DNA of 58,437 bases from an uncultured Candidatus Poseidoniales archaeon (lineage in GTDB: Archaea; Thermoplasmatota; Poseidoniia; Poseidoniales; Thalassarchaeaceae): NCBI GenBank assembly GCA_964556195.1, contig CAZKVK010000003.1, forward strand, positions 8,134 to 66,570. Reading direction: 5' to 3'. Made by a program: the position numbers and the translations under genes. The notes beneath the pieces were generated by a model, which did not search any database, was not told the origin of the DNA, and saw only the letters and a program-made list of their open reading frames with translations. Numbering within the stretch: position 1 is the first letter of the stretch; the number at the start of each line of letters is the position of its first letter. Shown in pieces: positions 12,250 to 49,637 of this stretch.

Positions 12250-15200
12250 GTGCACAACCGATTCCAGACTGCCGTGCTCCTTACGCTAATGCTCGTCGCA
12301 CCGTTGACTGGAATTGCTGGGGCAGACGAAGTTGAACCTGCTCCAACCTGTGAAATCCTAGTCGATTGGAACTATGATTGGGCTCTAGATGAAAACGGAA
12401 CATGGCAAGAAATGGTAATTCATCGCTACAGAACTACCTTTGAGCCTGCGTTTCAAAACGGCACTTCTCCTAGTGGAGTAACCATTGATGTTCAGCACAT
12501 CAGAGATGGGCAAGTCATCGCTACAGAGGCCCAAGCATCCTATGTTGTAGCGGGTGGAGAAATTGATGTTGTGTTGCCAGATGAGCCGGAATTCCTCGAT
12601 GAGGTATTTGTCCAAGTCAGTTCGACAGAAGCCACCTGCTCACGCTCAATGGATATGACAATCTGGAACCAACCATCTGCTGACCACGAAATCACTCGTG
12701 AAACCACTTGGGAGTTACAGAATGACGCAGAGGGTGGTTCAAGCCTATATTTCGAAGGGCGAGGTTGGCAGAAGCGAACCGGTGAAATTTTGAGTTCTAG
12801 TGAATTAGGAAATGGATCCTTAGTTCTCGATTTGGACACCGGTACCGACCAGATGTATTTGACTCTTGATTTGCATAACGTATGGATGAATGAGACATAC
12901 GATGGAACTGAGATTTCACGTCAAATTTTCGAGATGCGTGGCTCAGGTAGCCTAGAATTCGTAAGTGATTCAGAAGACTCTCTAATCGATGTAGAGGCCA
13001 ATGTGTACCAAGCGTACATACTCAGAGATTGGGAAGATGGATTACTTACGGAACGACTAACTTTGGAAGCAACCGGATCTATCTCATACAACGGGGGTTC
13101 AAACAATAGTACTCAAGGCGGCTACGGAGAATTGTCAGTATTCTACATTGAAACGTGGGATGAAGATGGAATTCGTCGTCTATCTGATACACAAATTGAG
13201 GCCAACCTAAGCATTCGCCTCCAAACCCAAGACGAAGCATTTTCCTTCGAATTGGATGAATTCCGAACTAGGGAAAAGTGGCTTGACGGAGTTCGTGAGG
13301 AACAATTGTTGAAAATCAAAGGTTCTGGAGATTTTGGTTTCCTTATCCAAGATAGTCAATTCCAAGTTCAAGTTAATGGAACAGTTCCAGACATCCACTA
13401 CGAGGTACTTGGTGGCGAGGTTGTTCAGGATCGCATAATTGTCGATGGTCAATATTCTGGGGATGCTAGTGGTTCATTCGGTTATGTTCGCCAAATAGAA
13501 AAATCCCTAATTCAAGCAAATGCTACCGGAGAAGAATTCGAAGTTGATGTTATAGAAAATGAATTATGGTTTAATATCTCAGGAACTCCAATAGGACCGA
13601 TAGGACAAGAAATTGAGGCAGAACACAATCTGACCTACGAATACACTGTTCCACAAACAGATTGGGCAAATCGAACAATTCGATACCTATATGTCGAGGA
13701 CAATGGCACTACAAGTAACGAATATCCAGAAAGTTCGCCGTTAATCTTGGAGCCAGAGAGACCCCAATATGACGGTGACATGAATATCACTGGTTTCAGA
13801 GAAACTGGTATAGTTCCTGACGAATATGTAATCGGTGATAATTTTCCGACTTCCCGTGATGGAAATGGACAGACGATAGAAATCATTGGTATTAGAATGG
13901 GTATGGCCGATGGCCATGAAGTCGAGTTGGCTGAGTGGCAGGATACTGAATCACTAGACAATTTCACTGCCTATGGAACGGTAATCAATGAGGGATTACT
14001 CGCTGGTATGCTTCACGAAGTGTACCGGATTATCGATATTGGTTTGCCGATAGGAGATGAAAATGACAACGAATCAGAAGTCGTCAGAGTGGTCGAACAT
14101 CAGACTCTTGAGAGGGTTCTGTATCCATCGGTAATTACCGCCGCAGAAAATACACCTCCTACATTACTTGGTCTTAGTTTTAGAGAAGGTGTCCTATTCA
14201 CCGAAGGCGGAATTGCTCACTTAGAAGCAGTGATCGAGGACGTCGACACTGACGTGGTTGGTGTGATGGTCGATTTGAGTGAATTTGGTCTAGGAATAAT
14301 CACCCTTTCAGACACCGGCCTAAACGGTGATGATATAATTCACGATTCGGTTTGGACAGCGAAGATAAATCACGATGGTTTAGAGTTTGGAAATTTATCT
14401 GTTCCAGTAAAGATGGATGATCTCTGGACGGATGTCCAAACAACTGCCTATGTTGAAATTTCAAATGCTGCGCCTCGAATCATCTCGCGCGTGTACACGC
14501 CTGACTTTGCATATCGCGGCGAAGTTATCTCTGCAAGCCTCAAGGTGCAAGATGGACATGGTGTGGAATCGGTAGTAATCGATTTACTGAGTGCAGGTGG
14601 AGAGCTAACCCCGCTAACCTTAGACTCCAACAATGATCGATGGGTAGGTCAATTTGTCCTACCGGATTCCCTAGCTCCTGGCTTGCGGACTATTCCAATT
14701 CAGGTCGCAGATTACCAAGGTGCCAGCGCCCTCATCGATGGTGGTGCGGTAGTTCAGGTCCTAAACGAAGCACCGGAAATTACCAACGTCTCATTCTTTG
14801 ATGAAGGAGAATGGGTTCCTCTAATCGAGATTCCCAAATCGGGTGAGAAAACATACACGATTGAAGTATCAATTAACGATCCAGACGGAGTTTCCTCCGC
14901 CCAAGCGAAAATTGGACGCCTTGCGCCGATTGGGAAATCGGAGGCATGGCTATTGTTGAAGGATGATGGCCAAGATGGTGACAGAGACGCAGGTGATGGC
15001 ATATTTTCGATGCGAATAGATGTCCGCTCTACTTTATCCGAAGGCGAGATGAATTTCCTTGTTCGAGCATCGGATATTTTCCAATCAATAACGCCAGCAG
15101 ATTCTCAGACATATACCGTTGAATTGGTTGATGAGAAATCTTCGGGTGGAGGTGGAGCAAATTGGATTGCGGAAAATTCCACTACTCTAGTTCTGATTGG

Positions 15201-24964: not shown

Positions 24965-25801
24965 ATGAGCGATGACGTGCTACTGGTCGAGAATGTTCCA
25001 GTCGAGGGCTCAAGTCCCGCCGGGGGAGTAATTTCTGTTTGGACATTAAACCGACCAGAGAAACTCAATGCTCTGAACAGGGCATCGCATGATGCCCTCA
25101 AGCAAGCTTGCTCCGAAGTGGAGGCCGACGACAATGTCCGAGTGGTGGTAATTCGTGGCGCATCGCCACCACCAGCCCCAGAAGGAAAGCGTCAGAAACC
25201 AGCCGCTTTTGCGGCAGGTGCCGACATTTCGGAGTTCGTAGGAAAGAATTCCGATGACGTCCGCCCTTTTTTCGAGAACAATGCATGGGAGAGAGTTTGG
25301 AATTTGACTAAGCCAACAATCGCAATGGTCGATGGATTTGCACTTGGGGGCGGAACAGAGTTGGCCCTTTCCTGCGATTTGCGTATTGCCAGTACACGGG
25401 CTAAGTTTGGCACACCAGAAATCAATCTAGGCTTGATTCCGGGTGGAGGCGGCACCCAACGGCTTGTGGACATACTAGGGTATGGTAAGGCCATGGAGAT
25501 GGTAATGACCGGAGAAATGGTAGGCTCAGAAGAGGCGTTAAGACTTGGATTGGCCAACGATGTAGTCGAGTCTGAGGAGCTTGAAACTCGTACGATGGAA
25601 ATGGCGGAAAATATTGCTAAAAAGTCTCCCTACACAATCAAGGTTGCCAAGCGAGCGGTTCGTGCCGCGCTTGATTTAGGAATGTCCGAAGGTATACTAG
25701 CCGAGAGGTCTGAATTTGTTGCACTCTTCGACACCGAAGACAAGGAAATTGGAGTTCAGGCATTCCTTGAGCGCAAAAATCCTGAGTGGAAAGGCAACTG
25801 A
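24965..25801 (+). CDS. Enoyl-CoA hydratase/isomerase (crotonase)
   Basis: LNRPEKLNA, FAAGADI, GGGTELALSCD and PEINLGLIPGGGGTQRL motifs, with both catalytic Glu. Confidence 0.93.
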   Translation: MSDDVLLVENVPVEGSSPAGGVISVWTLNRPEKLNALNRASHDALKQACSEVEADDNVRVVVIRGASPPPAPEGKRQKPAAFAAGADISEFVGKNSDDVRPFFENNAWERVWNLTKPTIAMVDGFALGGGTELALSCDLRIASTRAKFGTPEINLGLIPGGGGTQRLVDILGYGKAMEMVMTGEMVGSEEALRLGLANDVVESEELETRTMEMAENIAKKSPYTIKVAKRAVRAALDLGMSEGILAERSEFVALFDTEDKEIGVQAFLERKNPEWKGN

Positions 25802-25829
25802 GGACTGTAGACAGTTTGGCGATGTTGCT

Positions 25830-26210
25830 TCACCGTTTTTTAACCCAGTTCCAAGCTACGAAAGGGAGACTCCAGAAAGCCCCTCCAATTGCTCCCATGG
25901 CAACCACTATTGCTAACGTAATTAGGTTGGTGTTGGGCAATCCAAATACTGGTCCAAATAGAGGCATAATCGATGTGATACATCCTATAGGTATGAGTAT
26001 CTTGAGGCTCACTTCGGGCCACTCAGCGCGTTTCCATAATTGATTAACAACTGAGGATGAAAGAGTAGCCAATGCAAAAAAAGCAACAAATAGTCCTGCA
26101 AAAGATCCGACGAACTCACTACCTTCTGCAAAGACGAATGCAACGAGAATGAATATCGCCAATAATGCCCCAGTAGCGGCACCAGCAAGTATTACCCCCA
26201 CTCGTTCCAC
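25830..26210 (-). CDS. Hypothetical membrane protein
   Basis: 126 aa with four hydrophobic helices. Confidence 0.65.
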   Translation of the reverse strand: MERVGVILAGAATGALLAIFILVAFVFAEGSEFVGSFAGLFVAFFALATLSSSVVNQLWKRAEWPEVSLKILIPIGCITSIMPLFGPVFGLPNTNLITLAIVVAMGAIGGAFWSLPFVAWNWVKKR

Positions 26211-26228
26211 AATACTCTGAGTTGTAGT

Positions 26229-26813
26229 TTAGGAATTAAGATACCTCTCAATTTTTCCGATGGGGTCCTCGATTTTTGTAAGGTCAAGCAGCAACCAGTC
26301 ATTTTTGCCAGCCAATTTAATCATCTCATCCTGTATTTCTCGAATTCTTTCGATATGGTCAAGATAATGCCGAACAGGTCTGCCGTTGTGTTTTCTTCTA
26401 CCTGTAATCATTCTCACATGCTCTTCTTCGTCTTCAACAGCCAAAACAACGCCGCAGGCCTCACCTCCTGTAGCTCTCCATTCATCGATTAGAGCAAAGT
26501 CGGGTACGAAATGAACTCCCTCCATCAAAATATCCCCCCCTCTCTTCATTTCGCGAGATACAACCGCTTGTATGGCATCATTTAGAGGACTAACTGTGGC
26601 CTTCCAATCTTTGATTGCTCCTGATCCTCCAGGCTGAAATGAGGATCGATGTAAAGCCGGTTCTTCTTCTTCGAATATTTGAGTTCTGAGAGTTTCTCTA
26701 ATTGTATCGGTAGCCACTATTTTGTCGAACTCCAAAGAGGCTGCAATCTTTGCGCTAAGGGTTGATTTTCCAACTCCGCTAGCACCGGTTATGACCAGCA
26801 ATCTGCCGACCAT
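26229..26813 (-). CDS. 2-phosphoglycerate-kinase-like P-loop small-molecule kinase
   Basis: GASGVGKST Walker A, TDTIRE, LHRSSF and EGVH motifs. Confidence 0.75.
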   Translation of the reverse strand: MVGRLLVITGASGVGKSTLSAKIAASLEFDKIVATDTIRETLRTQIFEEEEPALHRSSFQPGGSGAIKDWKATVSPLNDAIQAVVSREMKRGGDILMEGVHFVPDFALIDEWRATGGEACGVVLAVEDEEEHVRMITGRRKHNGRPVRHYLDHIERIREIQDEMIKLAGKNDWLLLDLTKIEDPIGKIERYLNS

Positions 26814-26824
26814 TCGTACAACCC

Positions 26825-28243
26825 CTAACGTTGAATCGCCTTCACTTCGAGAAATTCTTCAAGACCGTGAATGCCGAGTTCGCGACCGTTCCCTGACAAC
26901 TTGTAGCCCCCAAACGGGGCAGAGATGTTGAACGGTCCGCCGTTGATACTGACTTGTCCAGTACGCATTTGTCTAGCCACCCGCAGGGCTCTTTCTTCAT
27001 CACTTGACCAAACTCCTCCTGACAACCCGTACTCTGAATCATTGGCTAAATCTACGGCTTCCTCCTCGGTAGAGTATGTAGTGATTGACAGAACTGGTCC
27101 GAAAATCTCCTCGCGGAAAATGGTCATCTCTGGAGTTACGTCAGAGAATACGGTTGGTCGAACGAAAAATCCCTTTTCAAGCCCCTCAGGCATTCCCAAT
27201 CCTCCAACCACCAAAGTGGCTCCCTCTTCGATTCCAGCAGCAATGTACGAGGAAACACTCTCTTGCTGTCTACCCGAAACCATAGGTCCGCAGCGCTTTG
27301 ATTCGTCCATGGGATCGCCAACAGAATATTTCTCCATCTTCGTAGTAATCACTTCGACAATTTCCTGTTTTTTCGACTCGGGTACGAGTAATCTGCTCAG
27401 GGCGGAACACTCTTGACCAGAGTTTCCAAAGCACTCGTGAATCGATGCTGATGCTGCCTTAGCAATGTCAGCATCGTCCAGAATAATGTTGGCGCTCTTG
27501 CCGCCGAGCTCCAATGTTACTCTCTTTACGCTCGGGGCTGCCAACTCGCTGACTCTAACTCCGGCTCCGGTGGAGCCGGTGAAGCTTACCATATCCACAT
27601 CAGGATGACTGCTCAATACCTCGCCAATCTCTCTGCCATGTCCTGAAACTAGATTGAATACACCTGCAGGTAGGCCAATTTCGTGGATGATATCGGCAAG
27701 TACGAATGAGTTCAGAGGAGCTTCCTTGGACGGCTTGACGACCATCGTACAACCAGCGGCAATAGCCGGAGCGACCTTACCTATGATCTGGTGTAGAGGG
27801 TAGTTCCAAGGAGTAATCATTCCCACTACGCCAATGGGCTCCTTGACAATTAGTGAGTTTCGCACCTCTTCTTCCCATTCGTAGTTCTCTAGAATTTTAG
27901 CGTACGAGCGACAAACCACTCTGGGAGTGCCAACCATCGCGCCTCGGCAGTAATTGATTGGAGTTCCGACCTCTGAAGTAATCAGTTCTGTGAGCTCTTC
28001 GGTACGTTCCTTAATGGCCTGTGAGAGCATGTTCAGGTAGCCGACTCTGTCTTCCACTGAGGCATTGGACCACTCAGAGAAGGCCTCTTTGGCCGCTGCA
28101 ACAGCCGCCTCGACATCAGCGGTCGAACCGACTGGAACTGAGCCGATGATTTCCTCATTAGCAGGATTAATGACTTCGATTGCCCCTTCGCCTGTAGGCT
28201 CAACCCAACTGCCATCTATGTACAGGTGCTCGCGTGTGTGCAT
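26825..28243 (-). CDS. NAD(P)-dependent aldehyde dehydrogenase
   Basis: ITPWNYP, FTGST, LELGGKS, GQECSA (catalytic Cys), EEIFGPV and PFGGYKLSG motifs. Confidence 0.95.
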   Translation of the reverse strand: MHTREHLYIDGSWVEPTGEGAIEVINPANEEIIGSVPVGSTADVEAAVAAAKEAFSEWSNASVEDRVGYLNMLSQAIKERTEELTELITSEVGTPINYCRGAMVGTPRVVCRSYAKILENYEWEEEVRNSLIVKEPIGVVGMITPWNYPLHQIIGKVAPAIAAGCTMVVKPSKEAPLNSFVLADIIHEIGLPAGVFNLVSGHGREIGEVLSSHPDVDMVSFTGSTGAGVRVSELAAPSVKRVTLELGGKSANIILDDADIAKAASASIHECFGNSGQECSALSRLLVPESKKQEIVEVITTKMEKYSVGDPMDESKRCGPMVSGRQQESVSSYIAAGIEEGATLVVGGLGMPEGLEKGFFVRPTVFSDVTPEMTIFREEIFGPVLSITTYSTEEEAVDLANDSEYGLSGGVWSSDEERALRVARQMRTGQVSINGGPFNISAPFGGYKLSGNGRELGIHGLEEFLEVKAIQR

Positions 28244-28313
28244 GTAATGAGTGCGGAAGGGGGCGACTTATCACATTCATGCAGTTCAAAAGTGGAGCCC
28301 CCACCGCCACATC

Positions 28314-29114
28314 ATGGGAATTGAAGTGGAACGTCATGATGGTGGAGTAGCCGTTGTCACTCTCTCAGAAGAAGCTGCGAGAAATGCCTTCTCTCGTGCC
28401 TCAATTCGCGAAATCTCAACTATAATTGGCGTTTTACTTGACGACCGTTCCTGTAAGGCAATAGTGCTCACCGGAACGGGTCGATTTTTCTGTACAGGAG
28501 CAGATATTGATGAGTTCGCAGACTCGATAGACGATGGCTCGATTGGTAATCTCGTCGATGAGTTAACTAGTGTTTTGCACCCACTCGAATTGCGACTGCG
28601 CCGCAGTCCAACCGTATTCATCGCAGCAATCAACGGTTCGGCTGCAGGTGGCGGATTAGGCCTCGCACTTTGCGCCGACTATCGTGTGTGTGTTCCAGAT
28701 GCAAGGCTTGCAGCCGCTTTCTTCTCGCTCGGTTTGTCTCCAGACGGCGGCTCAACATGGCTACTTCCACGCTTGGTCGGATACCAAAGGGCTCGACGCT
28801 TCTTCTTTGATAACGAAGTTTGGACAGGCGAGCAAGCACTCGATTTGGGGGCAGTAGACGAAGTGATCGACTCAGAAAATTTACTCGAGAGAGCGATTGA
28901 GGTAGCAACAAAATGGAGTTCATGGTCAGAGGCGAGTAAACAAGGTACCAAGCAATTACTAGATGCCTCTTCAACAACCTTCATGGAAACTCAACTTGAA
29001 TTTGAAAAGGCACTGATTATGGCCGCTTCCTTAACACCTGATTTTGCGGAGGGAGTTTCAGCTTTCATAGAGAAGCGAGAGGCTAGATTTGGAACCTCAT
29101 CGGAAGAGGAATGA
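28314..29114 (+). CDS. Enoyl-CoA hydratase/isomerase, PaaG-like
   Basis: FCTGADI, AAGGGLGLALCAD and LSPDGG (Asp-type isomerase signature as in PaaG); start MGIEV at 28314. Confidence 0.85.
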   Translation: MGIEVERHDGGVAVVTLSEEAARNAFSRASIREISTIIGVLLDDRSCKAIVLTGTGRFFCTGADIDEFADSIDDGSIGNLVDELTSVLHPLELRLRRSPTVFIAAINGSAAGGGLGLALCADYRVCVPDARLAAAFFSLGLSPDGGSTWLLPRLVGYQRARRFFFDNEVWTGEQALDLGAVDEVIDSENLLERAIEVATKWSSWSEASKQGTKQLLDASSTTFMETQLEFEKALIMAASLTPDFAEGVSAFIEKREARFGTSSEEE

Positions 29115-29115
29115 A

Positions 29116-29394
29116 TCATTCTTCACGTCTTAATTTCAAGACGCCTGCAATTATTGTAATAATGCAGGATAAAGCGGCAATATTGGCTAGAGTCATCGCT
29201 ACCGAGCCAATTACGATTCCATAAACCAACCATAGGATAAGAGAGGTTGAAACCAAAGTGAATGTTGGTAGTGAAATTCCGTCGTGTTTCTTTTCTGACC
29301 AGACTCTTTGAATCTGAGGAACCCACGCAATTACACCCAGAAATCCAGCAAATACTCCAATTACTTCTACCCAGAATGGAATCAAATCATCCAC
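29116..29394 (-). CDS. SemiSWEET (PQ-loop, 3-TM) transporter
   Basis: 92 aa with three TMs, WVPQ...K..DGIS and LWLVYG motifs. Confidence 0.85.
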   Translation of the reverse strand: MDDLIPFWVEVIGVFAGFLGVIAWVPQIQRVWSEKKHDGISLPTFTLVSTSLILWLVYGIVIGSVAMTLANIAALSCIITIIAGVLKLRREE

Positions 29395-29404
29395 TCCTCA
29401 TTAG

Positions 29405-30295
29405 TCACAGTGGAAGGTCATCGCGCTCGGACTTTTCTCCATCTGTCCAATCATAAATCCCTCTTCCACTCTTCTTTCCAAGACTTCCTTCTTCAACAAG
29501 AGAATTGAGCAATTGATGAGGGCTGTATGAATCATCCTCAAACGCTTCTGCCAGACTATTGAGGATATCTCGTCTTACATCCAATCCGACTAGGTCGGAG
29601 AGTTCCAAAGGCCCCATAGGGTGCCTGTAACCTAACCGCATGGCAGTGTCGATGTCAGAGGCGCTTGCTACTCCATCGGCAAGCATACGAATCGCTTCAT
29701 TGCCGATAACAACTCCCAGTCTGCTGGTTGCAAATCCTGGTACATCGTTGACGAGGATAGTTTCTTTACCCATTGCATAACCGATTGATTGCGCCGCTAC
29801 AATAGTATCTTCAGAGCAAGACCCATGGCGAACAACTTCGAGTAATTTCATTATTGGAACCGGATTAAAAAAATGCATTCCAATTACTCTTTCTGGACAA
29901 TTTGTCGACTCTGCTATGGCAGAAATCGGTAGACTTGAGGTATTGGTTGCCAGAAGAGCGTGAGGTGGTGCCATCTCCTCTAACTGAGCAAATATTTTCT
30001 GTTTCAATTCCATGTTTTCAGGCACTGCCTCAATAACTAGATCGACACCATTGACCGCTTCAGCCAAATCGGTACATTCACTGAGGTTATCTGACCATTT
30101 GGCTTTCTCTTGCTTTGTGGTTTTTCCACGAGCAATTCCTTTATTCCAGAAAGCCTCAATGCCCTTGATTCCCTTTTCAAGCCCCTCAGGAAATGCATCA
30201 TAGAGTCGGGTTTGCCAACCCGTTTGGGCGCAAACTTGAGCAATTCCTGCGCCCATCGTACCGGCGCCGATTACGGCGACGGTCCGAACATCCAT
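29405..30295 (-). CDS. 3-hydroxyacyl-CoA dehydrogenase (PaaH/Hbd-like)
   Basis: VIGAGTMGAGIA, EAVPE, NTSSL, GMHFFNP and HPMGPLEL motifs; start at 30295 or 30313. Confidence 0.93.
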   Translation of the reverse strand: MDVRTVAVIGAGTMGAGIAQVCAQTGWQTRLYDAFPEGLEKGIKGIEAFWNKGIARGKTTKQEKAKWSDNLSECTDLAEAVNGVDLVIEAVPENMELKQKIFAQLEEMAPPHALLATNTSSLPISAIAESTNCPERVIGMHFFNPVPIMKLLEVVRHGSCSEDTIVAAQSIGYAMGKETILVNDVPGFATSRLGVVIGNEAIRMLADGVASASDIDTAMRLGYRHPMGPLELSDLVGLDVRRDILNSLAEAFEDDSYSPHQLLNSLVEEGSLGKKSGRGIYDWTDGEKSERDDLPL

Positions 30296-30299
30296 CGTA

Positions 30300-30866
30300 T
30301 CACTCCCTGCCATAGGCAGCAAGGGCTGCTTGGAATAGCCGCTGTCGTGGCACGTCATGTTCCAAGAAGCAGGTGAATGGTGCCACGTCTTTCAGTAATT
30401 CAATTGCTGAGACATAGGCGCCGTAAATGAATGGGTCAGCGACTTCCGTCGCTGGAATATCAATTCCCAACTTTGCCAATCCTTTGCGCGTATCCTCGTC
30501 CCAAATTGCATAGGTGTGTTGGGTGAAGTGGAGGTATGCTGAGAGTCTGCAGATATCCGATCGTGCCTTTTCTGTAAAGGAGTCGATAAGTAGCGTGTCT
30601 GGATAGCGAATTGCATACATTGCTAATTTGACTTCTCGAGTTGTTTCCTCTCTCCAATCGCGCTTGTCTGAACCCATCCAGTAATCCACCATATCTAGCA
30701 TGTCGTTGCTATATGGTCGGTGAACACGGTAGAGTAATTCTTCGTATCCTTCGGGATTTTGCTCTTCCGAGTGGTGATGTTCATAGAAAAGGTCAGTAAG
30801 TCTGTCGAAGAATGGCTTGCAGCGTTCCTTATCGAACGCAAGTAGTGCTAGATGTTGCATCTTCAT
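30300..30866 (-). CDS. Hypothetical protein translationally coupled to the boxB-like gene
   Basis: Its ATG at 30866 overlaps the boxB-like stop codon (ATGA); predicted helical; function unknown. Confidence 0.7.
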   Translation of the reverse strand: MKMQHLALLAFDKERCKPFFDRLTDLFYEHHHSEEQNPEGYEELLYRVHRPYSNDMLDMVDYWMGSDKRDWREETTREVKLAMYAIRYPDTLLIDSFTEKARSDICRLSAYLHFTQHTYAIWDEDTRKGLAKLGIDIPATEVADPFIYGAYVSAIELLKDVAPFTCFLEHDVPRQRLFQAALAAYGRE

Positions 30867-32005
30867 TCGCCCTTCCACTCTCGGTATTGAATCCACTCTT
30901 CCTGCATGTATTCATTCATCAGGCGGTCTTCGTCTTCGTCGGTTGGTAAAACATCGGTAAGGTAAGCGTTCCAATCAGAATCACTTCCTTCGAAATCTTC
31001 TCCTTCGAGCGTGAATCTCTTTCCTGCATACTTTCCAATTCCACGATTGAATTTGTCTGATGGAATTGTCAGCTCAGGCTCACCATCTTTTCGAGCCTTT
31101 GAGATGCGTCGCATCTCATCTCTCAATTCTTGGAAATAGAGCTCTCGGCTGGCCTCATTCAGGTGAGCCCTGTCAGCATCTCCCTCGGACTCTCTCTCAT
31201 CGTAGCGGCCCTTGATTCCGTAGACGTAGGCCCACTGGGCACTAGTCGAATCATCGGTTCCAAACAGGTCGAGTCCTGTGCTGACCCACTTGTTGATGTA
31301 TTTCTGCAAGAGGGAACAAGGAATTACTCCTTGCTTGACGATTCTTCGTAGCCCATTAGCTCCTGTACCAAGATGAAAAGATTCCTCCTTTAGCATTGGA
31401 CCCATTGATGCAGCAAGTGGCTGGAAGGAAGAAGTGCTGAGCATCTTCAATTGGTACTTTCCATCGCGATCAATAAAGTGAGTGAAGCAGAAGAAATCTA
31501 GCCAATGATCGATGGGTGCGTTGAACGACCCAAGGATTCTAGTCCCCTCCTGAGCATTTCGCTCAAGCAGTTTTGCGGCCTCCCTAACACCATGCTCTCC
31601 GAAGTAAGTGCAGAGGAGATATGCCATCTGCCAACCGTGTCTCTGCTCTTCGCACATGATACGTAGGGCCGACTTTTTGTCGTACTCAGTGGGTGCGGTC
31701 TCTAGTAGGTGGTTCTGTTGTTCCACACTAGCGAACTCAGTGTCTCCCTGAACGCTTACCATCGAGATGATTGCATCTCGGATGTTTTGTTGCGGAATTT
31801 GCATTCTTCGCTGCCATTTTGGCATCCCTTCGAAATCTCCGAATTCGATGCTGTTTCCGGCGGTGTCCCAATCGAATTTGATATCAAATCTGTAGTCTCC
31901 AAGCCACGAAGGGTCGAAGCCAATACGAGTTTGCCATTCTTGGAAATCGCTAATCCAGGCTTCAAAATTTGGAGAGTAGTCCTGAACAATCTCGGTCTCT
32001 GTCAT
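30863..32005 (-). CDS. boxB: BoxB-like benzoyl-CoA 2,3-epoxidase subunit (PaaA/BoxB diiron family)
   Basis: QGDTEFASVEQQ, EEQRH, RILGSFN, FIDRDGKYQL and EESFH match BoxB motifs, with all six diiron ligands; likely start MTETE at 32005. Confidence 0.82.
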   Translation of the reverse strand: MTETEIVQDYSPNFEAWISDFQEWQTRIGFDPSWLGDYRFDIKFDWDTAGNSIEFGDFEGMPKWQRRMQIPQQNIRDAIISMVSVQGDTEFASVEQQNHLLETAPTEYDKKSALRIMCEEQRHGWQMAYLLCTYFGEHGVREAAKLLERNAQEGTRILGSFNAPIDHWLDFFCFTHFIDRDGKYQLKMLSTSSFQPLAASMGPMLKEESFHLGTGANGLRRIVKQGVIPCSLLQKYINKWVSTGLDLFGTDDSTSAQWAYVYGIKGRYDERESEGDADRAHLNEASRELYFQELRDEMRRISKARKDGEPELTIPSDKFNRGIGKYAGKRFTLEGEDFEGSDSDWNAYLTDVLPTDEDEDRLMNEYMQEEWIQYREWKGE

Positions 32006-32078
32006 GGGTAGAGCCAAAGGTAACCCGTATATCAATGACTGCTTCTAAGACGTAGTCTTAGATTGTCGAAAACCTAGT

Positions 32079-32960
32079 TCACTTGCCTTCGAAGCGAGGA
32101 GTTCGACGCTCGACGTAAGCGGCGATACCTTCCTTTGCGTCTTCACTGTTGAAGAGGGCTGCTTGCAACTCTCTCTCAAGTGCGAGGTGGTATTCGAATG
32201 GCATCTCAGGTCCGGATTGAACCGAGCGCTTGATGTTTCCAACAGCCAAAGTGGCCTTGTATGGCAGGGTGAATTGTCCAGCGTAGTCTAGGATATCTTG
32301 GCGAAATTCGTCAAGTGAACCATCCCATACATCGTTGATTAGATCCATTTCTTTCGCCTTCTCAAAGGCCATCAACTCTCCGCTAACCATGTACTCAAGA
32401 GCTCTCGACTTACCTATGATTCGTGATAGTCGGGCTGTACCTCCAGTACCGGCTAGAACGCCGAGGTTGATTTCTGGAAGTCCACACTTTCCGCTGTCTT
32501 TTCTTGCGATTCGGATATCACAGGCCATTGCGATCTCTAATCCACCACCGACGGCGTGACCATTGATTGCACAGATTACCAACTTTGGAGTCTGTTCAAG
32601 GCGGCTAAGAGTTTCGTTTGCATGAAGACAGAAATTGTACTTGAATCCGGGTGTGACGGAGTTTAGCATTTGGATTGAAGCACCGGCGGAGAAGAATTTG
32701 TGGCCATTACCAGTGATTAGAATCACGCTGACATCATCATTGAATCGAGCCTTTACGACGGCCGTGTCGATATCTCGCATCATTTCATGGGTGTAGGTAT
32801 TCGGTCCAACTTCGTCTCCTTCCAACGGCCCACCAGCAGAGTTCGATGCAAGTTCGATAATTGCGATACCGTTGTCAGTCACTCCATAGTTCACGAGGCG
32901 GTTGGGCATTGGCTCTAGTTCAGGCCATGATGTCATAACTTGCCGACCGAAGGTCGCCAT
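32079..32960 (-). CDS. Crotonase-family protein resembling the N-terminal domain of BoxC (benzoyl-CoA-dihydrodiol lyase)
   Basis: FSAGASI...FKYNFCLHANETL resembles the BoxC FKVNFC..TNET motif; single crotonase domain; start at 32960 or 32936. Confidence 0.75.
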   Translation of the reverse strand: MATFGRQVMTSWPELEPMPNRLVNYGVTDNGIAIIELASNSAGGPLEGDEVGPNTYTHEMMRDIDTAVVKARFNDDVSVILITGNGHKFFSAGASIQMLNSVTPGFKYNFCLHANETLSRLEQTPKLVICAINGHAVGGGLEIAMACDIRIARKDSGKCGLPEINLGVLAGTGGTARLSRIIGKSRALEYMVSGELMAFEKAKEMDLINDVWDGSLDEFRQDILDYAGQFTLPYKATLAVGNIKRSVQSGPEMPFEYHLALERELQAALFNSEDAKEGIAAYVERRTPRFEGK

Positions 32961-33006
32961 ATCAAACAAACGGCGATTGAAATATAATGTTTCCAACCTT
33001 CATTCA

Positions 33007-34329
33007 TCAAATCAACAGTGCAAATAGTACGCTTATCTTTGATGGCGCATTCTCCATGGAAGTCCTTCTTGCAGTAAAATCAAACAATAGGTTCTGTAGA
33101 AATTCTTTTCTTTCAACTCTTGAGACAAATCTATTCATCAAGAACGGAGATGTGAGAAATTTTTGAAACAAAGCCGCATGAGACATTTCGACTTCCATTT
33201 CCTTCCAGAGTCGTTCCTGGTATTCTATTGCGGCCTCTTCAGGAAAGCCATCTCCTAGATAGTCGCGAGAAAAGAGAGAGATTGCTAGTTTTGCGGAATG
33301 AACTGCGTTACCTATTCCTTCCCCTGAAAAGGGGTCAACTAAACTTGCAGAATCTCCAATTAGCAATCCACCAGCCATTGCCGAGCGCCTTGGTTGAAAT
33401 CCAGAAGGCGAATTTTTCCTCGGTGACCCCAAAGGAAGCTTGGACCCCTTACCATTTCCTAATGGTTTTGCATTTTCAAATCTTGGAGCGAATTTTGGGC
33501 TTTCATTAATCACGTAATCCATCATTTTTCTTAATTTCACAGAACGTGAATCTAGGTCCTTTTGGAGAGTGCCAAGGCCAACATTTACCACTCCTTCCGA
33601 TACTGGGAAAATCCAGAAATACCCCGGAGCGATGCCGTCAATGAAGTGAACCTCTATCTGGTTTGAACAATCAGAGACTCCCGACCAATACTGTCTATAT
33701 GCGGTTGCATAATGCTTGGAGTTGGACAGAGGCTCCTCAAAGGCATCGCCAATTAGAGAACGTGAAACGGGACAATTGTAACCTCCTGCTCCTATGGTCA
33801 ACGGAGCATTAAATTCCAACTGTTCTCTTGCCCCATCAGCCGATTTCTTTTGACCTCGAATTCCAATAATTTTGTTTTTATTTTCAGAGTAAAGAATTTC
33901 TTTGACAGTAAATTCCTCAATAACAGTACCTCCTGAACTTTCCACCATATGCTTTGCCTTCTTGAACAAAGTGTGATCGAAAATTTCTCTTGTTTGGCAC
34001 CATGCTTGTGGATAGTATTCTTTACTATTCTCTGGTAAAATAATAGTAGCCTCATTTCCATTTGGACTGGACACCCTCAAGCCATTAAATGGCGCTACAT
34101 CTTCAAGAAAATCTTCAGGATTCATATTGAATTCTCTTAGAAAAGATTGGGTTTTCCATCCCAAAGCATCGCCACAAGTTTTGTCTCTAGGGAATCTAGC
34201 TCTGTCAACTAACAATACGCGATAGCCATCGCGAGCAGCATAACAGGCAGCTGCACTACCCGCAGGTCCTGAGCCAACCACAATAATGTCATGGGGGCCC
34301 CCTGATTGAGCCGATTTATTGACTGACAC
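33007..34329 (-). CDS. Geranylgeranyl reductase family FAD-dependent oxidoreductase
   Basis: VGSGPAGS, RDKTCGDAL, PGYFWIFP (PxxYxWxFP) and GDSASLVDPFSGEGIGNA motifs. Confidence 0.88.
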   Translation of the reverse strand: MSVNKSAQSGGPHDIIVVGSGPAGSAAACYAARDGYRVLLVDRARFPRDKTCGDALGWKTQSFLREFNMNPEDFLEDVAPFNGLRVSSPNGNEATIILPENSKEYYPQAWCQTREIFDHTLFKKAKHMVESSGGTVIEEFTVKEILYSENKNKIIGIRGQKKSADGAREQLEFNAPLTIGAGGYNCPVSRSLIGDAFEEPLSNSKHYATAYRQYWSGVSDCSNQIEVHFIDGIAPGYFWIFPVSEGVVNVGLGTLQKDLDSRSVKLRKMMDYVINESPKFAPRFENAKPLGNGKGSKLPLGSPRKNSPSGFQPRRSAMAGGLLIGDSASLVDPFSGEGIGNAVHSAKLAISLFSRDYLGDGFPEEAAIEYQERLWKEMEVEMSHAALFQKFLTSPFLMNRFVSRVERKEFLQNLLFDFTARRTSMENAPSKISVLFALLI

Positions 34330-37323: not shown

Positions 37324-37653
37324 TCAAGCGTATACTAATGCCCCAGTTGGACACCAAAGCAGACATCTGAGGCAGTCAGTACAATTGTCTTGGATTACTT
37401 CACACAGACCCTCTACAATCAAAGCATCATCTTTGCAAGCCATTAGGCAGTAAGAACAACCAACACATAGTTGGTCTAGAACCTGTAAGGTCATACCCTC
37501 AGAAGTTGGCTTATCATGGTCGACACCCGACTCCAATTGAGGTACGACTCCTGGAGTCGCCTTGTCACGGAAGGCTTCGGCCACGTCTCTTCGCTTCAGT
37601 TGGGGTATTTCAGAGCAGTGATTCATTCCGCACCTATGATTAGGGATATACAC
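37324..37653 (-). CDS. 2x[4Fe-4S] ferredoxin
   Basis: CVGCSYCLMAC and CTDCLRCLLWCP motifs; start uncertain. Confidence 0.85.
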   Translation of the reverse strand: MYIPNHRCGMNHCSEIPQLKRRDVAEAFRDKATPGVVPQLESGVDHDKPTSEGMTLQVLDQLCVGCSYCLMACKDDALIVEGLCEVIQDNCTDCLRCLLWCPTGALVYA

Positions 37654-44062: not shown

Positions 44063-45076
44063 ATGCACTCACTAGGACTGGTTGGCGGTACTTTCGACCG
44101 CTTTCATGCAGGGCATCGGTCCCTGATCGAGCATGGACTCTCCAAATGTCAAAGGATCGAGGTATGGTTAACCAGTGACCGGATAGCACATGCAAAAGAC
44201 CCTCGCATCGAATCATGGTCCGAAAGGTCGCTGAAATTTGTAGAATCTATTGGTGAAGAATCTACCCGGATTTCTATTCATTTACTGGAAGATGAAGATG
44301 GGCCTGCACCTTGGCATGAGGAAGCATCAGCCATTTTATGCACACCAGAGACAGCAACGGGTTGCCAGAGGATTAATCTCGCGCGCGAGAGTAATGGTCT
44401 ACCTCCTCTCGAAATTCTCAAGGTTGAGTATGTAATCGGCCACGATGGCAAGCCAATTTCAAGCTCTAGAATTCGCCAAGGAGAGATTGACATAGATGGC
44501 GAATCATATCTCCCCGAGGATGCTGGTGAAGTCAATCTAATCTTGACAGAAGAGGTAGAAGCGAACCTCAAGGACCCGTTTGGACAATTGTTTACGGGTC
44601 CAGAGGACGATACAAGCGTAGCAATGCGAGCCGTCCTTGAAGAAATATTTGGTAGCCATGGCCCAATCATCGCAGTGGGTGATGTAACGGTCAAAGCCCT
44701 ACAAGATTTGGGAAGTCCCGCAGACATCGCTCTAATCGATGGTAAGACCAAGCGACAAGAGTGGGAAGCGGCTTCGGCAATCGATCTCTCACTTTACGAT
44801 ACAAGACGCACCTGCGAGAATCCTGCAGGTCAATTGAGCTCAGATCTATTCCATGCCTGTGCGGGCGCTTTACAGGTCTGGAATGAGGACGACAAAACTT
44901 GTCTGATTGACGTGGATGGTGAAGAAGACCTAGCCCCTCTAATTCTTCACCCGATGGCACCATTGGGTGCCGTGGTTCTTTATGGTCAGCCTAACCGTGG
45001 AGTTGTACTTCGTTGGACTGGCTTTGATTCTAAGTCACGTTGTAGAGAACTTCTCGCAGCAATGGACAGGGCTTGA
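44063..45076 (+). CDS. coaD: Phosphopantetheine adenylyltransferase fused to DUF359 (archaeal GTP-dependent dephospho-CoA kinase)
   Basis: N-terminal GGTFDRFHAGH and ISSSRIR; C-terminal LKDPFG, AVGDVT, IDGKTKR, NPAG, VDGEEDL and YGQPNRG. Confidence 0.88.
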   Translation: MHSLGLVGGTFDRFHAGHRSLIEHGLSKCQRIEVWLTSDRIAHAKDPRIESWSERSLKFVESIGEESTRISIHLLEDEDGPAPWHEEASAILCTPETATGCQRINLARESNGLPPLEILKVEYVIGHDGKPISSSRIRQGEIDIDGESYLPEDAGEVNLILTEEVEANLKDPFGQLFTGPEDDTSVAMRAVLEEIFGSHGPIIAVGDVTVKALQDLGSPADIALIDGKTKRQEWEAASAIDLSLYDTRRTCENPAGQLSSDLFHACAGALQVWNEDDKTCLIDVDGEEDLAPLILHPMAPLGAVVLYGQPNRGVVLRWTGFDSKSRCRELLAAMDRA

Positions 45077-47367: not shown

Positions 47368-48186
47368 TTATTTTCTAACATGAATCTTATCATTATTTTC
47401 GTCAATGAGCAATTCATCTCCATCCTCAAGTTGAACGATCCCCTCGTTCAATTTCGGTGTAGGGAAACCTCCTTCTTGATCCAAAGCATCCGAGTAATTG
47501 TGAGTGACTAGAATTGTCGCATGTGGATGTCTTTCAGCCAGTGAATTAACTTGGCTAGGATTGTGATGATTAGGGCTCTCGACAAAATCTGGCACCCCCA
47601 TTTCAATCAGAATAGCATCAGCTTCTGTGGCTCGTGATTCAATCTCCTGACAAGGGCCGGAGTCACCGCAATGCAGTAGTTTGAATCCACTCTTGTGAGT
47701 TAGCATATAGCCATGTGGATCGGTCTCGGGAGTGTGAACCACTCTGAATCTCTCGTAACTCCAATCCGATTTTTCTATTTCTCCAGATTCGCTTTCCAGC
47801 CAATTAATGTCATCGGTTAGAACTTGGCTCAAGCTTCCTGGAAAACCAACATTACTGAGGTTGTAGAGAATCTCTCTTCCCCCCGGTCTGAGGTATACAT
47901 TCAAAGGATTTTCAGCATCAGAGACAACTCTCCTCTCAAGAATGAAAAATGGAAATCCGAACATATGATCAGCATGCCAATGGGTAAACAATAGGTGCTC
48001 AATCTGGTTGGTTGAGACTCCTACGCGTCGTAATTGTGGTAGCAGTGTTGGCGGTGCGTCGACCAGTATTTTTTCATCAATTAAAATCAGCGCATGCATC
48101 CTTCCATGAGGTGAGAAAGCATTCCCCGTGCCGAGGAACTGCACGCGCGGCATGACTCTCCATGTGGCGTCCATGACTTGAGCCAT
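47368..48186 (-). CDS. Metallo-beta-lactamase-fold hydrolase (RNase Z/PhnP-like)
   Basis: FLGTG, THWHADH (HxHxDH), GDSGP and NHH motifs. Confidence 0.85.
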   Translation of the reverse strand: MAQVMDATWRVMPRVQFLGTGNAFSPHGRMHALILIDEKILVDAPPTLLPQLRRVGVSTNQIEHLLFTHWHADHMFGFPFFILERRVVSDAENPLNVYLRPGGREILYNLSNVGFPGSLSQVLTDDINWLESESGEIEKSDWSYERFRVVHTPETDPHGYMLTHKSGFKLLHCGDSGPCQEIESRATEADAILIEMGVPDFVESPNHHNPSQVNSLAERHPHATILVTHNYSDALDQEGGFPTPKLNEGIVQLEDGDELLIDENNDKIHVRK

Positions 48187-48273
48187 TCGGGTCTCAACGC
48201 CCGCTACGCGGGCGAACCTAATCCCCCTTGTTTGATAAACGGACTTCGATTCGGCGACACGCTGGTGAGTACT

Positions 48274-49551
48274 ATGTCCGATTGGAGTGCAAAGAACCCG
48301 TATACCTCTAAGTTAACGGAAAATCACGTTCTTAATGGAGAAGGCTCGAGAAAGGAAACTCGCCACATAGTATTCGATTTGGGAGATTCTGGTCTAGAAT
48401 ACAAGGCCGGAGATGCACTGGGTGTGATCCCCCGCTGTCCACCTGAGTTGGTTGAGGATTTACTCTCAACAGCCAACTTCAGTGGAGATGAATTGGTAGA
48501 AACACATCTCGGTGAGACTACACTAAAGGAAGCCCTCACCGATCATCTAGAGATCCATCGAGTTTCAAAGAAATGGCTTCAAAATATTGGCAACAGAATG
48601 GGAGGTGATGGACCTGTGGAGATTAGAATTGCTCGCAGACATCGAGTATCAACCGAGGATGGAGCACTTCTGGTAGATTGGTCGGGCTCGGGAGAAGGCG
48701 AAGACGTCCCAGAAGGTTACGAAGAAATCGGTGCAGCCTGTGACCCAGCTGAAATTCTTTGGAGAAATCTAACGGAAGACGCAGATGCCATGGAGGATTA
48801 CATCTGGTCTCGCGATTACATTGATGCCATGTGTGATTTCGGACACATCGGATTTACCGCTCAACAATTCGTCGATGGGATGGACCGGCTGAAGCCGCGT
48901 CTATACTCTATCGCTAGTAGTCCAGAGCATGAGCCTGGAACAGTTCACTTGACCGTAGGAATCGTCCGATATTATCACCACGAGCGAGACCGAACTGGTC
49001 TTTGCACTGGCTACCTGGCCGATCGTTGTGATGTTGATGATACCAAGATTGGCGTATTCATGTCACCAACCCGTTCATTCATCTTACCTGAAGACGGTAA
49101 CACCGATTGCATAATGGTCGGTCCAGGAACTGGAATCGCTCCTTTCCGTGCCTACCTTCAACAGCGTGATATCAATGATGACAAGGGTCGCAATTGGCTA
49201 TTCTTTGGCGACTGGACCGAAGAAGGAGAATACTACTATCAAGATGAAATGGAAGACTGGAAGGCGCGAGGAGTTCTCGATCGCCACGACCTAGCATGGA
49301 GTCGCGCTGGAGATGAGAAGGTATACGTCCAACATCTAATGGCAAAGCACGGCGAAGAAATCTGGAATTGGATCGATGGTGGAGCTTACTTCTACGTCTG
49401 TGGCGACAAGAATTACATGGCTAAGGACGTACATTCAACCCTAATCCAAATATGTGCAGAACATGGTGGTATGACCCCAGATGAGGCCAAAGAATTCGTA
49501 GAGGTTGGAATGATGAAAACCGACAAGAGATATCTACGAGACGTCTACTGA
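48274..49551 (+). CDS. CysJ/cytochrome P450 reductase-type FAD/NADPH reductase lacking the flavodoxin domain
   Basis: KETRHIVFDL, PRLYSIASS, GLCTGYL, GPGTGIAPFR, LFFG, AWSR, YVCGD and a terminal DVY; start MSDW at 48274 after GGTGAG. Confidence 0.88.
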   Translation: MSDWSAKNPYTSKLTENHVLNGEGSRKETRHIVFDLGDSGLEYKAGDALGVIPRCPPELVEDLLSTANFSGDELVETHLGETTLKEALTDHLEIHRVSKKWLQNIGNRMGGDGPVEIRIARRHRVSTEDGALLVDWSGSGEGEDVPEGYEEIGAACDPAEILWRNLTEDADAMEDYIWSRDYIDAMCDFGHIGFTAQQFVDGMDRLKPRLYSIASSPEHEPGTVHLTVGIVRYYHHERDRTGLCTGYLADRCDVDDTKIGVFMSPTRSFILPEDGNTDCIMVGPGTGIAPFRAYLQQRDINDDKGRNWLFFGDWTEEGEYYYQDEMEDWKARGVLDRHDLAWSRAGDEKVYVQHLMAKHGEEIWNWIDGGAYFYVCGDKNYMAKDVHSTLIQICAEHGGMTPDEAKEFVEVGMMKTDKRYLRDVY

Positions 49552-49583
49552 TTGTAGCGATTTTTCTTACATTTTCTTTCCCA

Positions 49584-49602
49584 CGACCGCCTACGGCGGT
49601 CG
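49584..49602. terminator. 8-bp GC-rich hairpin CGACCGCC-TAC-GGCGGTCG
   Basis: Perfect inverted repeat following a T-rich tract between the reductase and biotin carboxylase genes. Confidence 0.4.
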
Positions 49603-49637
49603 CCGAACTCTACATAGGATTCAGCCTACAGCGACCT

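Follow-up and report, generated by a model that had tools for sequence, protein, structure and literature searches.

Can an archaeon open an aromatic ring by aerobic, CoA-dependent epoxidation followed by beta-oxidation? The question is raised by a gene cluster in a 58,437-nucleotide stretch of DNA (hereafter the window; positions 8,134 to 66,570 of contig CAZKVK010000003.1, assembly GCA_964556195.1) from an uncultured Candidatus Poseidoniales archaeon of the family Thalassarchaeaceae. The source genome (1.52 Mb, 87.6% complete) belongs to Marine Group II (MGII), whose members are among the most abundant planktonic archaea, have to our knowledge never been cultured, and are known to feed on proteins and lipids. 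An original prediction from the nucleotide sequence had placed here a BoxB-like protein with six di-iron ligands, in a co-oriented run of genes, and had proposed a horizontally acquired pathway for an aromatic CoA ester. The genes, motifs and strands are as described; the aromatic-CoA pathway survives, since six of the seven residues of the benzoyl pocket are kept and the crotonases, aldehyde dehydrogenase (ALDH) and 3-hydroxyacyl-CoA dehydrogenase fit a lower pathway of Box or Paa type, and the horizontal acquisition is not supported. We consider it probable, with a confidence well short of certainty, that the cluster specifies a Box-type route of epoxidation and beta-oxidation whose substrate is benzoyl-CoA or a very closely related aryl-CoA and whose electron donor is encoded outside the operon. 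We know of no archaeal Box-type pathway, and a literature search found neither such a pathway nor an analysis of this one; if the reading is true, this would be the first.

The di-iron protein is a member of the BoxB family and not of the PaaA family, as profile, PDB sequence, tree and fold agree and as the original prediction supposed. Against the BoxB equivalog model TIGR03225 it scores 221.4 bits, below the cut-off of 499.1 (canonical BoxB members score 509-908), and against the PaaA model TIGR02156 41.6 bits, with a cut-off of 280. A sequence search of the PDB returns BoxB at 168 bits (3per, E 2e-48), SSO1313 at 77 and PaaA at 28. The motifs GDTE, EEQRH, FID and EESFH are all found and align to E120, E150/H153, D211 and E240/H243 of BoxB; neither the window protein nor any of its archaeal relatives departs from these six ligands. 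The AlphaFold2 (AF2) model has a pLDDT of 92.6 and matches 3PM5, 3PER and 3Q1G in Foldseek with E ~1e-21 and TM scores of 0.82-0.85; the next-best fold matches are SSO1313 (0.51) and PaaA (~0.47). The annotation of the Joint Genome Institute (JGI) already names these archaeal proteins boxB.

A density functional theory study on PDB 3PM5 lists the ligands of BoxB together with the second-shell residues that position the benzoyl group, among them Q116, the thioester-binding Gln, which hydrogen-bonds the substrate (PMC5489048). Six of the seven benzoyl-pocket residues are retained in the window protein (Q116, T119, S123, F193, F203 and F206); the seventh, T210, is replaced by Ile. Every archaeal member of what we call the short-BoxB family has the ligands and Q116, T119, S123, F193, F203 and F/Y206, and so do 120 further members without exception. 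The window protein shares with BoxB of Azoarcus/Aromatoleum evansii (3PER, 3PM5, 3Q1G; TIGR03225) the ferritin-like di-iron fold with its ligands, Gln116, the aromatic pocket and a crotonase gene next door, at an identity of ~29-40%. It is shorter by ~95 residues, owing to trimmed termini and the trimming of several loops, and its partners differ: no BoxA and no two-domain BoxC accompany it, and it has an obligate partner of 188 residues. Characterized BoxB is monomeric and requires no structural subunit (PMC4498308). It also belongs to patchy catabolic islands, whereas short BoxB is a core gene of an archaeal order.

Two other systems invite comparison. SSO1313 of Sulfolobus (PDB 4MUD), a PaaA/BoxB-like protein, is an archaeal ferritin-like relative (query TM 0.51, target TM 0.85), but it has only 235 residues, lacks the conserved Q116, T119 and S123, and forms a subfamily separate from short BoxB. 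The PaaABC(D)E system of E. coli shares the strategy of CoA-dependent aerobic ring epoxidation and has an accessory protein gene right after that of the catalytic subunit; PaaG-, PaaF- and PaaH-like genes and an ALDH lie beside the oxygenase here too. The likeness to PaaA itself is remote (24% identity), and tblastn with the E. coli PaaB, C, E, I, K and Y proteins found nothing in the genome and with PaaD only a weak match, so that no full paa set exists elsewhere, as the original prediction had required.

The cluster and its flanking flavoprotein gene are laid out as follows (window coordinates).

33007-34329, minus strand: flavoprotein of the geranylgeranyl-reductase (GGR) family, co-oriented, 10 nt upstream of ECH_C
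32079-32996, minus strand: crotonase ECH_C, which heads the run before the di-iron gene; likely start at 32939-32960
30863-32005, minus strand: short BoxB-family di-iron protein, 380 residues, starting MTETE; presumed aryl-CoA ring epoxidase
30300-30866, minus strand: orphan all-helical protein of 188 residues, partner of short BoxB
29405-30295, minus strand: PaaH-like 3-hydroxyacyl-CoA dehydrogenase (the open reading frame reaches 30358; true start at 30295)
29116-29394, minus strand: SemiSWEET/PQ-loop transporter, last gene of the operon
28251-29114, plus strand: crotonase ECH_B, similar to PaaG and to alternative oxepin-CoA hydrolases; likely start at 28314
26825-28243, minus strand: ALDH, candidate for the BoxD/PaaZ-ALDH step
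26229-26813, minus strand: P-loop kinase resembling 2-phosphoglycerate kinase, a kept neighbor of the ALDH
24965-25801, plus strand: crotonase ECH_A, similar to PaaF and to short-chain enoyl-CoA hydratases

The open reading frame of the di-iron protein spans 30863-32035, but its true start was set at 32005, where the length matches that of its relatives. Its stop and the start of the orphan gene are joined in a 4-nt ATGA overlap; 4 nt separate the orphan from the dehydrogenase and 10 nt the dehydrogenase from the SemiSWEET gene. ECH_B is convergent with this minus-strand run, and the ALDH and P-loop kinase genes diverge from ECH_B. The spacer between ECH_C and the oxygenase is longer (73 nt, 32006-32078) and contains, ~30 nt before the oxygenase ATG, the sequence TTGATATA, possibly a TATA box from which a transcript with a short leader would begin within the run. 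The GGR-like flavoprotein was considered as a dedicated partner and set aside: it is not conserved with the module and is probably not part of it.

The oxygenase and the orphan constitute an obligate two-gene module in the Thermoplasmatota. The orphan was found in no group but the Thermoplasmatota. Its profile matches in 80 of 301 genomes of that phylum; at each place listed its gene comes right after that of the oxygenase, and none of the 301 has the orphan without the oxygenase. The orphan is all-helical, has no conserved cysteines and is unrelated to PaaB or PaaC of the Paa system. It matches nothing in Pfam, in NCBIfam, or in phmmer and profile searches of the PDB; hhalign finds no alignment to BoxB, and Foldseek with its AF2 model (pLDDT 67) returns nothing significant, the best entry being an 8-oxoG glycosylase at probability 0.10. 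It is a candidate subunit, effector or docking protein.

The module is ancient and belongs to the core of the order. The distribution across metagenome-assembled genomes (MAGs), which the original prediction had proposed as a check, shows the oxygenase in single copy in 196 of 201 Poseidoniales genomes (59 of the 61 high-quality ones) and in all 24 genera, with 75-96% identity within the Thalassarchaeaceae, a level that indicates strong purifying selection, and ~60% to the Poseidoniaceae. This near-universal single copy and a divergence that tracks the order establish vertical inheritance within the Poseidoniales rather than recent acquisition. The gene is also present, always with the same partner, in ~30 of ~240 other Thermoplasmatota genomes; the sister family within the class lacks it (8 of 8 genomes). 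Four Thermoplasmatota genomes of two other families (G223, G251, G346 and G425; f22 and f31) have only a shorter, partial relative with 37-39% identity over residues ~52-270, perhaps SSO1313-like; the same four genomes contain a gene like that of the alpha subunit of 4-hydroxybenzoyl-CoA reductase (HBCR).

Beyond the archaea the short-BoxB family is broad and so far uncharacterized, and is described here as new. In a library of 1.8 billion proteins, only 889 clusters (at 50% identity) match. In trees the MGII proteins group with the short BoxBs, far from the outgroup of PaaA and PaaC; canonical BoxB sits on a long stem (branch length 2.8) as a clade within the unresolved short-family polytomy, which suggests that the textbook BoxABC system is a derived form. 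An ancient exchange between the domains, in a direction that the tree does not resolve, is likely, since proteins of MAGs assigned to Binatia, Limnocylindria, Acidoferrales, Eisenbacteria and 'Deltaproteobacteria' are 61-67% identical to a non-MGII archaeal version used as query; between MGII and bacterial cluster representatives the identity is ~45-50%. The pocket of the bacterial short BoxBs is identical, down to the V or I of position 210, and in some loci their neighbors are ECH (enoyl-CoA hydratase-type crotonase) and dehydrogenase genes. They differ in lacking the 188-residue orphan; none has been characterized.

The neighborhood supplies the catalytic types needed after epoxidation: a ring hydrolase, an aldehyde dehydrogenase, an isomerase, a hydratase and a dehydrogenase. 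The order oxygenase-orphan-(transporter)-dehydrogenase recurs in MGIIb, in MGIIa, in a third Poseidoniales family and in other Thermoplasmatota, with ECH_C adjoining the oxygenase or within a few kb of it in several of these lineages. In MGIIa an EamA transporter stands between orphan and dehydrogenase in place of SemiSWEET, and an HTH_10 regulator lies directly upstream in MGIIa and in some MGIIb. Orthologs of ECH_C with 58-62% identity also immediately precede short BoxB in two other loci, both metagenomic. Three of the five crotonase genes of the genome are inside the cluster; a FadB-like fusion, four acyl-CoA dehydrogenases (ACADs) and three thiolases lie elsewhere.

ECH_C had been called boxC-like, and the name holds in part. 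Its score against the BoxC model TIGR03222, the best of the genome, is 83.7 bits, with a cut-off of 712, and covers the N-terminal domain only; over residues 11-214, N-terminal extension included, its identity to a genuine BoxC (from a boxCBA locus) is 31%. ECH_C retains both hydratase Glu residues and shares with BoxC the segment with the NFC..NET motif (FKYNFCLHANET versus WKVNFCKFTNET). However, BoxC has ~550 residues and two crotonase-like domains and ECH_C ~290 residues and one, so that what stands is a resemblance to the N-terminal domain of BoxC, not a BoxC. BoxC co-purifies with BoxB and relieves its product inhibition (PMC4498308). By its likeness to that domain, ECH_C is a candidate handler of the epoxide, analogous to the N-terminal domain of BoxC.

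The PaaG-like isomerase and further crotonase of the original prediction are both present, as ECH_B and the PaaF-like ECH_A, respectively. ECH_B scores 161 bits against the oxepin_alt model of NCBIfam, one of its top matches there and the top one of its MGIIa ortholog, and 149.6 against the PaaG model TIGR02280 (cut-off 345), both sub-threshold; its top PDB matches include PaaG of E. coli and T. thermophilus. It has the motif GLSPDGG and lacks both hydratase Glu residues; the Asp of GL.PD.GG belongs to the isomerase-type active site in PaaG. ECH_A is 38% identical to E. coli PaaF. The dehydrogenase combines 3HCDH_N and 3HCDH domains, has a PaaH-like N-terminal part and is 44% identical to E. 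coli PaaH. An ALDH always accompanies ECH_B, with the P-loop kinase nearby in Poseidoniales loci; the kinase scores 117 bits against 2-phosphoglycerate kinase, well under the cut-off, is a neighbor of the ALDH in many MGII lineages, and has no evident Box-like role.

From these assignments a pathway can be proposed. The 380-residue di-iron protein and its 188-residue partner would epoxidize the ring, with two electrons from a donor encoded off the operon, as family, ligands and pocket suggest. ECH_C, possibly with ECH_B, would take the epoxide or oxepin and open the ring hydrolytically, and the ALDH would oxidize the resulting semialdehyde. ECH_B may then shift the 3,4 double bond, ECH_A hydrate it and the PaaH-like dehydrogenase oxidize the product, which one of the three off-cluster thiolases would, by analogy with the Box and Paa pathways, cleave to succinyl-CoA and acetyl-CoA. 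All of the parts are small soluble proteins, so that expression in E. coli would put the hypothesis to a direct test.

Several observations weigh against this reading. The di-iron protein falls short of the BoxB cut-off. At position 210, where canonical BoxB invariably has T, the members of the short family have I, V or L, so that substrate or chemistry may differ. ECH_C is closer overall to ordinary enoyl-CoA hydratases, among them 2ppy and 5zai, than to BoxC (219 bits to Geobacillus 2ppy, 101 to PaaF, 80 to BoxC). The ALDH is generic (557 bits to Aldedh, no specific equivalog), and two ALDH subfamilies of 472 and 512 residues, ~35% identical, are swapped beside ECH_B between MGII lineages (26825-28243 of the window versus 13654-15189 of a second MGII locus, L029). 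BoxA (TIGR03224) reaches its cut-off neither in this genome nor in any of 70 Poseidoniales genomes of high quality; the archaeal genes have no conserved reductase nearby, and a cofactor motif is absent from the orphan. An aryl-CoA ligase, an ADP-forming acyl-CoA synthetase, a family III CoA-transferase and IOR are all missing from the genome, which leaves the origin of the aryl-CoA unexplained. Some bacterial relatives of the oxygenase stand alone beside TetR, MgtE or methyltransferase genes, and outside the Poseidoniales the HBCR-like alpha gene co-occurs with short BoxB only in part. An order-wide core catabolic pathway for aromatics is in itself unusual, and we know of no enzyme activity for any short-BoxB member.

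The missing partners pose the problem of the electron donor. BoxA, the reductase of the classical system, carries two [4Fe-4S] clusters and FAD and uses NADPH; its absence, and that of a benzoate-CoA ligase, bear out the original prediction, as does the consequence drawn there, for without BoxA another donor is needed. BoxC (TIGR03222) is likewise without a match over the cut-off in this genome, and neither a reductase nor a ligase was found in the neighborhoods of other Thermoplasmatota. One candidate lies in the window.

48178-49551, plus strand: CysJ-like FAD/NADPH reductase module, unproven candidate electron donor

This is the only FNR-type protein of the genome, and it is core in the order. 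As a partner linked to the oxygenase it was rejected: a constant distance of ~17 kb reflects conserved macro-synteny, and the 2.5 kb seen in one genus arose by deletion. The module lacks a flavodoxin domain; in every case a biotin carboxylase gene comes next (48178-50978), and the block moves as a unit with Cdc6 and a metallo-beta-lactamase-fold gene. A nearby ferredoxin gene (37324-37653) is not conserved with the oxygenase module and was dismissed as a dedicated partner.

Bacteria suggest how a short BoxB might be supplied otherwise. In three loci, Binatia and Eisenbacteria among them, a GAF-PtsP-like gene and the short BoxB gene are followed directly by genes for a NuoE-like 2Fe-2S protein and a NuoF-like FMN/4Fe-4S protein.

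L063 7001-9741: NuoEF-linked short-BoxB locus
L066 8001-10742: NuoEF-linked short-BoxB locus
L067 514-3256: NuoEF-linked short-BoxB locus

The two Nuo-like genes would encode a dedicated NADH-reductase module in place of BoxA, and the pairing argues that the short family consists of true reductant-dependent oxygenases. The family would present at least two new arrangements for electron supply, a NuoEF-like module in bacteria and the orphan partner in archaea. The bacterial solution is not that of the window genome, which has no NuoF-type reductase and whose sole resemblance to the NuoE-like gene is a thioredoxin-like 2Fe-2S ferredoxin, 35% identical to the bacterial partner, alone on another contig (C8, 19060-19707; L070 7060-7707). 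It adjoins a gene that, judged by eye, resembles pterin-4a-carbinolamine dehydratase.

The supply of the substrate is the second problem, and it leads to a molybdenum (Mo) enzyme. In an Acidoferrales MAG (L064, 238-9473) a co-oriented run comprises genes for TetR, a small ferritin-like protein, short BoxB, an ECH, a three-subunit Mo enzyme, Amidohydro_2, a dehydrogenase and another ECH, and the alpha subunit of the Mo enzyme passes the cut-off of the 4-hydroxybenzoyl-CoA reductase equivalog (1012.8 versus 994.55 bits). The window genome encodes a related enzyme on contig C11 (18167-24175, minus strand; L069 8167-14175), in the order XdhC, HTH_10 regulator, gamma, alpha and beta subunits. HBCR (TIGR03194/03195/03193) is the best family for each subunit, always below the cut-off: alpha scores 823 bits (cut-off 994.55; next family 517), beta 243 (404.55) and gamma 173 (257.8), the last in a near-tie with the gamma subunit of glyceraldehyde dehydrogenase (171). 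The enzyme of Thauera aromatica, HcrABC (1RM6), is by far the closest relative in all three subunits, with alpha at 640 bits to HcrA (1rm6_A; next PDB entry 277) and beta at 154 to HcrB (next entry 71). Alignment to 1rm6_B shows the four Cys of the extra [4Fe-4S] loop, the mark of this reductase, presumably C122, C138, C146 and C155 of HcrB, to be conserved; the additional [4Fe-4S] cluster of HBCR is reported by Unciuleac et al. (2004). Setting the C11 enzyme apart from HcrABC are its sub-threshold scores and its host, an aerobic planktonic archaeon and not an anaerobic degrader of aromatics; nor are its genes linked to the Box-like cluster in this genome. Its alpha gene occurs in 63 of 64 sampled Poseidoniales genomes and patchily elsewhere. 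That one HTH_10 regulon might unite the Box-like operon with the HBCR-like one was considered and rejected, since the regulators are not orthologous and the Box-associated one is missing here.

The product of 4-hydroxybenzoyl-CoA reductase is benzoyl-CoA, and these links therefore point to benzoyl-CoA as the substrate of short BoxB. The association of bacterial short BoxB with a NuoEF-like reductase and, once, with a bona fide 4-hydroxybenzoyl-CoA reductase is new here, as is the presence of an HBCR-like enzyme in the same archaeal genome. Benzoyl-CoA might then arise from 4-hydroxybenzoyl-CoA through the C11 enzyme, or else from phenyl-substituted acids through beta-oxidation, once they are activated by the one AMP-forming ligase of the genome, which is of the FadD type.

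How do other readings of the cluster fare? The T210 replacement, the sub-threshold scores and a donor not yet identified leave open a different acyl-CoA as substrate. Short BoxB and its partner might hydroxylate, desaturate or epoxidize some other small CoA ester (alicyclic, heteroaromatic, substituted-aromatic such as 4-hydroxy- or 2-amino-benzoyl, or phenylacetyl-type), whose product the crotonases, dehydrogenase and ALDH would process. We regard this as unlikely, though it deserves a serious hearing: besides the change at 210 and the low TIGR03225 score, F206 is mostly Y across the short family, the partners are not those of BoxB, and the position of canonical BoxB as a derived clade inside the short-family polytomy means that the ancestral substrate need not have been benzoyl-CoA. 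The invariance of six of the seven benzoyl-positioning residues together with the thioester-binding Gln speaks for the aromatic ester, as do the HBCR links, which indicate benzoyl-CoA itself; moreover BoxB and PaaA are highly substrate-specific (PMC4498308), and the pocket here is that of BoxB and not of PaaA.

Less probable still, to the point of being rather hard to credit, is a housekeeping or protective role of the oxygenase-orphan pair, such as the tailoring of cofactors, lipids or quinones or the repair of damaged CoA esters, with the beta-oxidation genes its neighbors by chance or through shared regulation. A core single-copy distribution in the Poseidoniales would suit such a role, and so would the housekeeping genes that flank the window cluster, the stand-alone bacterial relatives in non-catabolic surroundings, and the expression reported for MGII boxB, which is among the highly expressed genes in a Red Sea metatranscriptome (PMC5069720). 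Against it stand the recurrence of the ECH_C subtype and the same dehydrogenase beside the oxygenase in distant archaea and bacteria, the transporters and the HTH_10 regulator attached in several lineages, and the location of the general beta-oxidation genes elsewhere.

That the di-iron protein is an inactive or structural relic in a cluster for plain fatty-acid beta-oxidation, as the want of a reductase partner and of BoxC might suggest, is scarcely credible when ligands and pocket are perfectly conserved in hundreds of sequences from two domains of life, purifying selection is strong, and four ACADs and a FadB-like fusion already cover beta-oxidation. The four ACADs likewise dispose of the notion that the di-iron enzyme is an O2-dependent substitute for acyl-CoA dehydrogenase.

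The Box-type reading for benzoyl-CoA or a close relative can be carried further, in a form that is tentative and as a whole somewhat doubtful. The Poseidoniales and several other Thermoplasmatota would then have a core, highly expressed, O2-dependent benzoyl-CoA pathway fed by an 'anaerobic-type' HBCR; the epoxidase would consist of two proteins, with the orphan making a dedicated reductase of BoxA or NuoEF type unnecessary, for instance as a docking site for a general ferredoxin; and the characterized bacterial BoxABC would have branched off, as a derived form, from a short-BoxB family much larger and older than itself. Were the Box-type reading true, aromatic dissolved organic matter (DOM) would join the diet of MGII, and in the extended, core-pathway form planktonic archaea would be a major overlooked sink for DOM derived from benzoate, hydroxybenzoate, tyrosine and phenylpropanoids.

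Elsewhere in the window, 44063-45076 encodes a cytidylyltransferase-like domain of PPAT type fused to DUF359, which we take to be the archaeal dephospho-CoA kinase; the fusion would then be a gene of CoA biosynthesis.

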